This document shows positions 59,580 through 63,403 of a stretch of 64,000 nt of DNA, piece by piece; position 1 is the first letter of the stretch; each line of letters starts with the position of its first letter. The notes under the pieces are model-generated. The model had not been told where the DNA came from and made no database searches. It saw only the letters and a list, made by a program, of their open reading frames with translations. The translations under genes and the position numbers were made by a program. Origin of the DNA: Kondoa subrosea (taxonomy: Eukaryota); the NCBI GenBank assembly GCA_039545335.1, contig BCIN01000002.1, forward strand, positions 1,970,484-2,034,483. Direction: 5' to 3'.

Positions 59580-60457
59580 GGTGTGACTCGACTCGCTGCT
59601 AGAAGATAAAACGTTATCTGATTACGGCTAAAATCCGGCAGAATTTAGCCTCTCCAACACATATGAGGCAACCATCATCAATTCTCGTCTGCAACTACCA
59701 GGCGTAACAAGTGTCAATTTGGCTGGTGAGACGTGATAAGTTTCATTACAGCTTTTGGTTGAAGTACAAATTCCCTCAAAAGTAATCCATCGATTCACAA
59801 AAATCCTGTTCAGTCCGATTATCAGCAATCATTCTTTCGCAGGGGTTCTCGAGAGAAATGTAAAAGGTTCAGGTGCTATAATAATCTCAGTGACATTTGT
59901 CCCTGACTTTGATAAACGAAAAAAAGCATGATAGATAACCGTCTTCGTCCTCGTCGAGATCAACAATCCGTCAACACCATTCCTCTTTTCCCCTTGCAAA
60001 CAATCGCTCAGAGTTTCGACAATAGTATTCCACAGTTCGCCCATTCTTGCTTTCGTTCCGAGAAATCGCACATTCTGACCAGCAGCTTAACTCCATGACA
60101 GAGCTTACTGCTAGCGAACGTTTGATCTCTCAAAACAAAAGCGCAAACGAACAGAAACACATGAGAAATATCGCCTAGTCTTCTTTGCAAATATCCACGA
60201 AGAAAAAAGAGACGCAGCAAAAAGGAATCGATGAAAAGACATAGAAGATGGTTGCATGCTCCTTTTCGTGGAAAGTCTTTACGGTCCAATTGTCTCGATG
60301 AATGGATAGACTGGTATCAACATACAAGCAGGCAGAAGAGATTTGCAGAGACCAAAGGAAAGCTTACTTGAAGAGAGCCGCAGAGTCTGGTAACCTGTGC
60401 GCAACATAGTTCGTCAGTATCTTCTTCTCAACACAATGCGAATGAGGAGAGAAGGAA

Positions 60458-60548
60458 GAGTCAGAATTGAGTTTCTTTTTGGTATAACGAGTGTCTTTCA
60501 TTTATGTTCAGTAGCAGAACTGATAACGTTTGTTGGTTGCATCATTCG
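60458..60548 (-). ncRNA. snR61: Box C/D snoRNA snR61/U38 (SNORD38) orthologue, intronic
   Basis: Box C ATGATGC at 60545-60539; guide+D' CAGTTCTGCTA-CTGA matches the U38 guide as recalled and pairs with LSU rRNA UAAGCAGAACUG (D'+5 = yeast 25S A1133); box D CTGA at 60464-60461. Confidence 0.88.
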
Positions 60549-60703
60549 AAGAGGACAGATTTATGGAAGGGATGAGATGGAAGGAAAGCTCACGGGTAAT
60601 TAAATCTTCAAGGGCAGCGCAAAGAACGGACCGCTGTGCAAAACGCAATATCGCTATCAGTTTTTTACTCGACCGGATCATGAGCTTTCATAGATTAAAG
60701 TGA

Positions 60704-60861
60704 ATCCTCGGATGGTGATGCTGCGCGTATGATGCATCAGTAGATTGTAAGAGCACAAAACAAGGGCATCTCACCATGATAAAAAGTCTTCACGCTCGCG
60801 AGGAATCGATAGACGGATTTCTTGTTTTTCTCGCCCTGGAGGACGATATTCGTCTTTGGAT
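60704..60861 (-). ncRNA. snR55: Box C/D snoRNA snR55/U33 orthologue, intronic and itself interrupted by a 54-nt intron (60774-60721)
   Basis: After removing GTGAGA..TACTGAT..CAG the RNA reads ATCATG|CATCACCAT-CCGA, matching the recalled yeast snR55 guide and complementary to 18S UGGUGGUGCAUG (D+5 = U1269); C' GTGAAGA; candidate box C AAGACGA with an ATCC/GGAT terminal stem. Confidence 0.8.
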
Positions 60862-61027
60862 ACGTGACAGAGAGAGTTCGGGGTTCCAGTCAAACAGTGA
60901 AAAGCTCACCTTAAAAAAGTTTCGTTTCGAAAGAAGAAGAAGCAAGTGATTTCTCGACAAGTAGTCGACACCTCGGATCTCTGGACCGTAGCATAAGCAG
61001 CCAAAGTACTAGCTATTCATTTGCCCG

Positions 61028-63403
61028 TTACAAGAATGGCTCTAAATTAAACTCTAAAGCTGATGCTGGATTCCCATCTATATCAAAAGCAGCCAAAACA
61101 CTAGGGTGCAAGATGCCTAGCGACCCAATCTTGATATCGGATGTTGATTTAGCGAAAACGTTGCTAATTGCTCCTTTGACTTTATCTTGCAAAGATGATG
61201 ATGATCCAGCAGTGGCTTCTTTTGCTCCTTCGGCTGCAACTGCCTCTGGGTTCGGTAGTGGATCTGGAACTGGTTCGTATGATGAGTTCATCAATTGCGG
61301 TTGTTGAGGTCCAGAGGAAGCAGATGCAGGTCTGTAGTAAATTTCAGCAGCACGGCCAGGGAAATAAGTCGGGTCTGCAAGACCATCGAATCTCAGATTG
61401 AATCATTGCTTAAGAGTGATGGATACTCACCGTCGTGTTCAGTGATGTAATAACCAGCTTGATCCGTCTTGGAGTCCTTTGTCAATCGCCTGACTCCCAA
61501 AGTCACCATCAATCGATCCAACAAACCATGTACAACTTCAAATCCACCTCTTCGCCCAACAAAGACAGCGCCAACGTTCCTAATGTTTCTAGCTTTCCTA
61601 TCCTCCTTTCCGTCCTTGATAGCAATATCGCTAACTTCGAAAACTCTGAGCGGTAAAGAATGCTTCCTGTTCTCCCTCACACTCTTGAGTAAGCCAGGTA
61701 GTAAAGAAGTTCTAACGATCTGATACTCGGCAGTCTTTGGGTTGGCCAAAACTACCGCACTAGATCCATCATCTTTTCTGTTGAGCCAACCGAAATTCTC
61801 ATCGTGCGAACATAGAATCAAAGGTAAGACTTCAACCCATCCTGAAGAAGCGCATTCTCTTCTAACGATATCCGATAACTTGTTGATAGGGAAAGGTTGT
61901 GCAACGGTGTTGGTGGTAGGGAAAGTTTTGACCAGGTTATCGAATCCGTAGGCTATGGCAGCATCTTCTACGACGTCGCAAGGATGTAAGATATCAGGTC
62001 GAGAAGGTGAAATGTGTAGAGTAATGGAATCGGAAGAATCTGAATCCGCTACTGCTTTATTGCCCATCTTATCTAAAAGATCGCAAATTTGTGTTGTTGA
62101 AAGAGAAAGTGCAGTGAAAGCATTGATGTAAGAGGCAGAAACCTTCATTGCGCGGGTTGAAAGATCGGGTGTAATGACTGACTTTCCTCCAGGGTAGACA
62201 ACTTTGACTGATTCGATAGTGAAAGGGTCAGAAGTATATTCGCTGAACATTGTGACTATCATGTTGATAACGATGGAGAGCTTGGTCTCGTCAGTTGCCG
62301 TTGTATCGATGAAGATGTCGGTCGTTTCGAGCGTAATTTTGGTGTGCTCGCTATTGATGATTGGGGGCATGGAGAGCACTTGCCGTGTTGTGTCATAAAT
62401 AATAGGGTAGACTGGAGAATCGCGAATGATAGGAAGGAATTTGTTCAAGTGTCGATCAGTCTGGCATAAATTTAGCAAACAGCGGAACACGGTGCAGAGA
62501 AGCTCACTTCATAAAGCTGCATCATCTCTTCAGCAGTATACTCTTTGTCTTTGTTCAGCGGCTGGAACTTGATATCTTTCGGTGGAAGTGCTTCGTACGA
62601 AATTGTTCCTTTTCTGCAAAGTGATTATCAAATCTGGGCGGAACGGGCTCATAAGAAGAGGACTCACGCGATCTTTGACAGATCATGCGTTCCAATTGCA
62701 ACAAGTGTTCTTTTCCTCGCCAAGTTCATATGCAGCTTGTCTTGGAGGTCGATGAAAGATGCATAGGACTGCGGCGTGAATTTGACTCCACGAAGTACTG
62801 CCCCAGCAAAGTACGGTCGTATCCTTGCAACCTGTAATCACTTTGATAAACTTGCCTACCACATACCAGACTTGGCGAGGCCTACATCTTCTGAAAGCTG
62901 AACAGTAATCCCATTTTCATTCCACGGCAACAGCTTGTATTCAGGTCGCGGTTGCCATCCAAGATAGATCCGTAAAGCTCTGACAAGACCTTCCATACAT
63001 AACAAATCATAGCTTTGAGGAATAGTTTAGCTGTATTTAACCAGTCTCTGCTGGATGAGCTTACCGATTTGCTGGTATTTCTACTTTCAGCTTATGTGGA
63101 AGTTCATTAGGCGCTGATTGAGATGTCTGGCAGTGCAAGCATGAGTCAACTCTATCAAACTGTATATTTGAAGTATACATCTTCGTCCTGTCGAGGCAAT
63201 CAGTCGCAATCAGGCTCAAGATAACAAGACTTACCAGCTCCAGCCCATAAGCAAAGAGCAGCTCATCAAACTCCTCCGTTGCTTGAAATTACAAATTATC
63301 ACAAATCAACGAGTTGTTCCTTCATAGGCCCAGGACAGGACGCACTGTAGGTCTTGCCTAGTCTTGAGTAGAACTCATCCTTCTCCAATGAAATAGTCGG
63401 CAT
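61028..63403 (-). CDS. FRS1: Phenylalanyl-tRNA synthetase beta subunit (cytosolic), multi-exon
   Basis: [103 protein letters not shown]. Confidence 0.96.

Follow-up and report, generated by a model that had tools for sequence, protein, structure and literature searches.

The window, as we call the whole 64,000-nt stretch of DNA that was analysed, carries on its minus strand what is probably an snR55 (Z10/U33-type) box C/D guide RNA gene, with a predicted activity in 2'-O-methylation of the 18S rRNA at the equivalent of yeast U1269. The antisense element of this gene comes in two pieces, separated by 54 nt that have the signals of a spliceosomal intron. We give a probability of roughly 65% to the reading that the locus is a genuine snR55 and that removal of this nested intron completes its guide; the anatomy of the locus and its agreement with orthologues are observed. 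The snoRNA probably lies in the first intron of a putative non-coding host transcript just downstream of the PheRS-beta gene (FRS1), with snR61 in the next intron, as judged from the splice signals. The further proposal that assembly of the antisense element by splicing reflects a lineage-specific intron gain, which would couple 18S methylation to a splicing choice via ordered nested splicing, is one that we consider evenly balanced.

Anatomy of the locus

The features of the locus are as follows, from the outer intron inwards and then downstream, all coordinates being those of the window.

60634..60909, minus strand: outer host intron, predicted from sequence, 276 nt; donor GTGAGC preceded by AAG at 60909, branch-like ACTGAT 60661-60656, acceptor CACAG at 60634
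60704..60861, minus strand: predicted pre-snoRNA, snR55 orthologue, 158 nt (104 nt without the inner intron); terminal stem, boxes, guide and host-intron position match those of orthologues
60858..60861, minus strand: 5' arm of the terminal stem, AUCC, pairing with GGAU 60707-60704
60850..60856, minus strand: C-box-like AAGACGA (consensus RUGAUGA), with both GA steps retained and both U replaced
60787..60793, minus strand: C'-box-like GUGAAGA, 21 nt before box D in the spliced and 75 nt in the unspliced form
60775..60780, minus strand: 5' piece of the antisense element, ATCATG (AUCAUG), pairing with 18S 1274-1278
60721..60774, minus strand: putative inner GT-AG intron, 54 nt; donor GTGAGA 60774-60769, branch-like TACTGAT 60742-60736, acceptor CAG 60723-60721
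60734..60740, minus strand: CUGAUGC, the inner branch site in the favoured model, or the C box if the snoRNA is unsplit; part of a palindrome (60739-60730)
60712..60720, minus strand: 3' piece of the antisense element, CATCACCAT (RNA CAUCACCAU), whose fifth base before box D pairs with the U1269 equivalent
60708..60711, minus strand: D box CCGA (consensus CUGA, three of four positions matching), aligning with the terminal CTGA of orthologues
60704..60707, minus strand: 3' arm of the terminal stem, GGAU (GGAT), read from sequence
60656..60661, minus strand: ACUGAU, the outer branch site (A60657, 23 nt before the acceptor), whose CUGA is the D box if the snoRNA is unsplit
60594..60633, minus strand: predicted host exon 2, 40 nt, between the acceptor at 60634 and the donor GTGAGC at 60593
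60395..60593, minus strand: next host intron, 199 nt, carrying snR61 (60458-60550); splice signals read from sequence

A sequence-only reading of the window had placed a 54-nt GT-AG stretch (60774-60721) within the antisense element, inside a host intron (60909-60634) followed by a second intron with snR61. All of its coordinates are correct on the minus strand; the interruption and the signals of both host introns can be read directly from the sequence, and snR61 is recognised by Rfam (RF00476) at 60458-60550, with 52 bits against a gathering score of 45 and with AUGAUGC as its C box. The 54-nt stretch has a GTRAGN donor and a CTRAY branch sequence 6-36 nt before a YAG acceptor, the signals of a U2-type intron of typical length; the branch adenosine, A60737 of ACTGAT, lies 16 nt before the acceptor. 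Its length falls in the range of the FRS1 introns of the same window (approximately 50-65 nt), which have GTGAGT, GTGAGC, GTAAGC and GTGCGT as donors. The intron cuts the guide CAUG.CAUCACCAU after its four-base CAUG, and a guide CAUGCAUCACCA(U) directly before the terminal D box is obtained in the window only after removal of 60774-60721, the form to expect of an unsplit guide being CATGCATCACCAT.

Generic donor-branch-acceptor strings are not enriched in the window (28, against 20.9 +/- 5.0 expected). Intron-likeness alone proves little, because such strings are common by chance; the improbable part is the exact restoration of the invariant guide of the family. Chance was estimated from 100,000 first-order Markov sequences: a GTRAG donor preceded by CATG, at 40-120 nt from a fixed downstream acceptor, turns up at a rate of 1.7e-4, a looser pairing (any three further pairs) before a GTRAG donor at 7e-4, the terminal stem with GA-N-GA (ATCC-NNN-GA-N-GA) at 3.5e-3 and a C'-like box at the right distance at 7e-3, these being after-the-fact figures for features that are not strictly independent.

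Positions 60739-60730 (minus strand) of the inner intron form a perfect 10-nt palindrome, UGAUGCAUCA, which contains the branch-like CUGAU and includes an 8-nt copy (AUGCAUCA) of the exon-exon junction sequence that splicing would create, while GAUGC near the donor (60770-60766) can pair with GCAUC (60735-60731). The palindrome, the junction copy and this pairing may be a trace of the origin of the intron, or chance. An introner-type origin was rejected for the window, where the 54 nt have no second copy.

Pairing of the two forms was checked against positions 1266-1290 of the yeast 18S rRNA, TGGTGGTGCATGGCCGTTCTTAGTT, as numbered on Z75578 in the available part of PMC3940700. The unspliced form gives nine checked pairs (18S 1266-1274), while removal of the 54 nt gives 13 (18S 1266-1278), three of them G.U, and with CCGA as box D the D+5 position falls on U1269; the earlier figures of about 9 bp before and 12-13 bp after splicing, with D+5 on U1269, are borne out against this yeast sequence (PMC3940700, same part). 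The earlier remark that the C'-D spacing is 54 nt too long before splicing also agrees with the distances, which are 75 nt unspliced and 21 nt spliced, against approximately 21-28 nt in orthologues. Yeast 18S position 1265, which we take to be G, would add one further pair to each form, giving 10 and 14. An antisense stretch of at least 10 nt that ends at box D, with the target opposite its fifth base, would be present at 13-14 bp in the predicted spliced RNA, as against 9-10 bp in the unspliced RNA. Structural work of Yang and colleagues in 2016 reportedly indicates that 9-10 bp next to box D may suffice for methylation. The U1269 equivalent is, we assume, a conserved 18S site in the helix 34 region. 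In the accessible text of PMC2780460 the Neurospora crassa snoRNA CD34 (18S Um1265), yeast snR55, plant snoR34 and human U33 are equated.

A second stretch of complementarity occurs at 60807-60799 (minus strand), between the D'-like and C'-like boxes, where GAUUCCUCG is complementary to yeast 18S 1571-1579 as given in the portion of PMC3940700 available. No D' box stands in register with these positions. The complementarity may be chance or an accessory pairing; the segment 1571-1579 presumably adjoins the target site of snR57.

The ends of the snoRNA can form a 4-bp AUCC/GGAU stem, followed by a 3-nt bulge on the 5' side and then by GA, C and GA facing CCGA. By kink-turn geometry these ends would, on our assumption, supply two sheared G.A pairs, a C.C pair in place of the usual U.U and one G-C pair, and the off-consensus changes in both boxes would presumably affect two kink-turn bases that lie opposite each other. 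Minimum free energy folding of the spliced, unspliced and alternative forms was uninformative for choosing a model.

FRS1 ends with a stop codon at 61031-61029 on the minus strand, and the first donor of the snoRNA host follows approximately 120 nt past it on the same strand (60910-61031). Because of this short distance on one strand, the snoRNA introns may lie within the 3' UTR of FRS1, and not in a separate non-coding gene. Downstream of the snR61 intron, a 27-nt exon is followed by a donor GTAAGC at 60367 and a long intron-like stretch (60367-60180, minus strand); from 60367 onward this stretch holds no Rfam match and no recognisable third snoRNA. Rfam also finds no snR57 between 56000 and 64000 of the window, where FRS1 occupies the upstream side.

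Comparison with orthologous snR55 genes

Retrieval with the snR61 motif yielded 100 metagenome loci. A guide CATCACCATCTGA is located 102-328 nt upstream of snR61 in 31 of them, and locus L086, with one changed base, provides a 32nd snR55 gene; the remaining 68 loci contain no such guide within the retrieved DNA. The counterpart in the window, CATCACCATCCGA, stands at -197 from the snR61 motif. CATG directly precedes CATCACCA, and a D box follows, in all 32 snR55 genes beside snR61. Loose patterns found no split guide in these 68 loci, a split-guide pattern gave 0 matches in genome contigs, and among the 33 snR55 sequences only that of the window is split. With seven genes set aside as duplicates or as lacking the 5' part, 25 distinct sequences remain, in which the GATGA of box C, CATGCATCACCA and CTGA are invariant. 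The terminal boxes are canonical in 25/25 of these, against the off-consensus AAGACGA and CCGA of the window.

Rfam assigned all seven loci tested to snosnR55 (snR55/Z10, RF00472) with 42.6-98.2 bits, three of the seven at or above the gathering score of 50, and the consensus of this family ends ...CAUGCAUCACCAUCUGA. Given the orthologues and the Rfam consensus, the U1269 guide sits at the terminal D box in the snR55 family. A first model of the locus, with GUGAAGA as C box, CCGA as D' box and CUGA at 60660 as D box, was rejected, because no stem in register flanks it and because the guide sits at the terminal D box in the orthologues.

The spacing of the snoRNA in its host intron follows that of the orthologues. 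The end of box D lies 50 nt from the outer branch adenosine (orthologue median 52, range 32-62, 25 flanks) and 74 nt from the outer acceptor (median 67, range 56-79, 25 flanks); a MAFFT alignment brings the outer donor and branch into register with their counterparts in the host introns of orthologous snR55 genes. After the D box the window has the 9-mer CACTTTAAT, as do loci L007, L022, L031 and L034; since the flank after CCGA shares it with the flank after the terminal D box of these four, CCGA looks like a terminal box. The C' box of the orthologues (NTGAGCC or TGATCC) stands approximately 21-28 nt before box D. With the 54 nt taken out, the window reaches 14.6 bits against a profile of the 25 orthologues, compared with 6.0 bits for the genomic sequence, to which the covariance model matches at 60706-60721 only (7.4 bits). 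The Rfam snR55 model found no match in the unspliced genomic sequence, a 301-nt search with the limit relaxed to E<=10 included, as anticipated by the earlier expectation that ordinary snoRNA searches would miss the gene. The 5' half of the snoRNA aligns weakly to two yeast-like loci, L005 and L061 (p 0.03-0.04), and does not align to L007 (p 1.0) or L096 (p 0.57), and a BLAST search of the host region against the 100 loci returned snR61 as the sole match.

The sequence-only reading had proposed an snR55 orthologue split by a nested intron beside snR61, and this comparison adds to it the 32/32 CATG+CATCACCA guides, the spacing, the kink-turn and the flank distances, the splicing itself being predicted. 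It had made no mention of the off-consensus C and D boxes, of the C-box look-alike in the intron or of the 9-10 bp that survive without splicing.

Two features of the orthologues themselves were also observed. In the alignment of loci L005-L098 an internal pair of elements, GG(C/U)GA and NUGAGCC/UGAUCC, is nearly invariant; it co-varies in such a way that pairing is possible between the two bases that follow the GA steps, GC with GC and U with U. This near-invariance and co-variation suggests, from sequence comparison, a conserved C'/D' kink-loop in the orthologues although no guide adjoins it; the C'/D' motif of yeast has been called 'inactive' (PMC3116282). A short regular expression for the snR57 guide motif found none next to snR55, yet Rfam detects snR57 upstream of snR55 in L005 (109.6 bits) and L071 (86.5 bits), which have the full snR57-snR55-snR61 cluster.

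The FRS1 fragment of the window is 84% identical to P0121, an ENA metagenome protein of 386 aa encoded on a 2,583-nt contig, and at most 65% identical to the proteins of named fungi, among which Ustilaginomycotina and Microbotryomycetes come first. In genome contigs the FRS1 protein matches archaeal and bacterial homologues only (27-37% identity). Apparently the organism is a basidiomycete for which the collections searched have no close relative with a sequenced genome.

Predicted maturation and alternative interpretations

In the favoured model splicing would start with the inner intron, since transcription reaches its acceptor 87 nt ahead of the outer one. Inner splicing would join AUCAUG to CAUCACCAU and bring the C' box to 21 nt from box D. 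Splicing and debranching of the outer intron would follow, with trimming of the ends as far as the kink-turn of AUCC-AAA-GACGA and CCGA-GGAU. The predicted product is an RNA of approximately 104 nt, stable and active.

The same sequence could instead encode a conventional intronic box C/D snoRNA, unsplit and about 90 nt long (approximately 60743-60654), with CUGAUGC (60740-60734) as C box, CCGA as D' box behind a 9-10 bp guide to U1269 and CUGA (60660-60657) as D box; GTGAGA would then be either fortuitous or the actual donor of a host intron of 141 nt (60774-60634). We consider this unlikely. Such an RNA would have an intact UGAUG, and the snR61 of the window likewise has AUGAUGC; CUA before the C box can pair with UAG after CUGA, and the distance from GTGAGA to the C box, 34 nt, is close to the orthologue donor-to-C-box median of 36 nt. 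The N. crassa homologue CD34 is, moreover, listed with a D' guide in the part of PMC2780460 available. The flanking stem of the unsplit snoRNA is, on the other side, one base out of the usual register, and its D box falls on the sole candidate for the outer branch site, at a distance of 23 nt from the acceptor as against 56-79 nt in the 25 orthologue flanks. CCGA, which it treats as an internal box, is terminal-like in being followed by CACTTTAAT, as are the terminal D boxes of the four loci named above. Three further features would be coincidences under this model, namely that CATG precedes the donor (1.7e-4), that a C'-like box is in place (7e-3) and that a kink-turn with a stem can form at CCGA (3.5e-3), all after-the-fact Markov figures, whereas the favoured model needs only two ACTGAT branch sites with a few fitting neighbours to account for the features of an unsplit snoRNA.

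The off-consensus C and D boxes, the barely alignable 5' half and the missing Rfam snR55 match on the genomic sequence would all suit a decaying copy, inactivated by an insertion and by box mutations while a working snR55 resides elsewhere in the genome. We regard this as rather unlikely. A random 54-nt insertion would not have a donor, a branch site and an acceptor exactly at its ends, the place beside snR61 has been kept and the signals of the host intron are intact. The two box changes, moreover, fall on what we take to be facing bases of the kink-turn. A search of the window for other copies of the guide gave two matches at up to two mismatches, where 1.73 are expected, and no second copy. 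The 54 nt might instead be retained as a tolerated expansion segment in a mature RNA of approximately 158 nt, which would guide through the 9-10 contiguous pairs that adjoin box D in the unspliced form, GAUGC (60770-60766) and GCAUC (60735-60731) closing a hairpin in the insert. This is very improbable: it would leave unexplained why the 54 nt carry GT...branch...AG exactly at their ends and why CATG precedes the donor, and the C' box would lie 75 nt from box D, against the approximately 21-28 nt of the orthologues.

Relation to known snoRNA genes and introns

A text search of the full-text literature, to which supplements and figures might add cases, found no intron inside a methylation-guide snoRNA; the related items are the work on U3 and PMC3596301, which in its available part describes gain and loss of snoRNA-bearing introns and nested introns around snR51, not inside a snoRNA. 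A 2017 survey speaks of small RNAs 'often interrupted by an intron' and, in the accessible text of PMC5832005, means U3 and U6 only. An intron that splits a methylation-guide snoRNA thus seems unreported for this class of RNA. If it is spliced, functional guides of intron-rich fungi can escape snoRNA finders and Rfam models, the spliceosome can work on RNA that will itself end up as intron debris, and sequence free of coding constraint can gain an intron and keep it. The intron would then have been gained under selection that acts on RNA function only, neither a reading frame nor nonsense-mediated decay being involved, and the locus would offer a simple natural system in which nested splice sites and snoRNP assembly compete.

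The closest comparison is with the snR55/Z10 family (RF00472) itself. The window shares with it the guide core CAUCACCAU followed by box D, the CAUG that splicing would restore, the predicted target at the U1269 equivalent and snR61 as neighbour. It differs from the family in the 54-nt interruption of the guide, in its C box (AAGACGA, not UGAUGA) and D box (CCGA, not CUGA), in a 5' half that can barely be aligned and in a genomic sequence that the Rfam model does not recognise. In other basidiomycetes snR55 is intronic in a non-coding host, as in the window, and the snR57-snR55-snR61 cluster is likewise intronic there (PMC3596301, available text). Hosts of the UHG/GAS5 type and this fungal cluster have in common with the window one snoRNA per intron, short and poorly conserved exons and a snoRNA approximately 50 nt upstream of the branch site, whereas the window has no adjacent snR57 and no more than 120 nt separate the start of its host exon 1 from the FRS1 stop.

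Spliceosomal introns in U3 genes are widespread in Basidiomycota, according to the part of PMC5832005 available. The fungal U3 genes, like those of U6 and other snRNAs, resemble the window in having a canonical GT-AG intron within the gene of a small structured RNA, the removal of which is needed for function. U3 is, however, an independently transcribed processing chaperone with introns in its 5' stem-loop, whereas the snoRNA of the window is an intron-encoded methylation guide, whose putative intron is nested and cuts the antisense element. Stwintrons, in which one U2-type intron lies inside another and removal is ordered, are known from fungi (accessible text of PMC12403724). Nesting is common to both arrangements, but the inner intron of a stwintron splits a splice signal of the outer one; in the window the outer signals at 60909, 60661-60656 and 60634 are intact, the inner intron begins 135 nt inside, and it is the snoRNA that is split.
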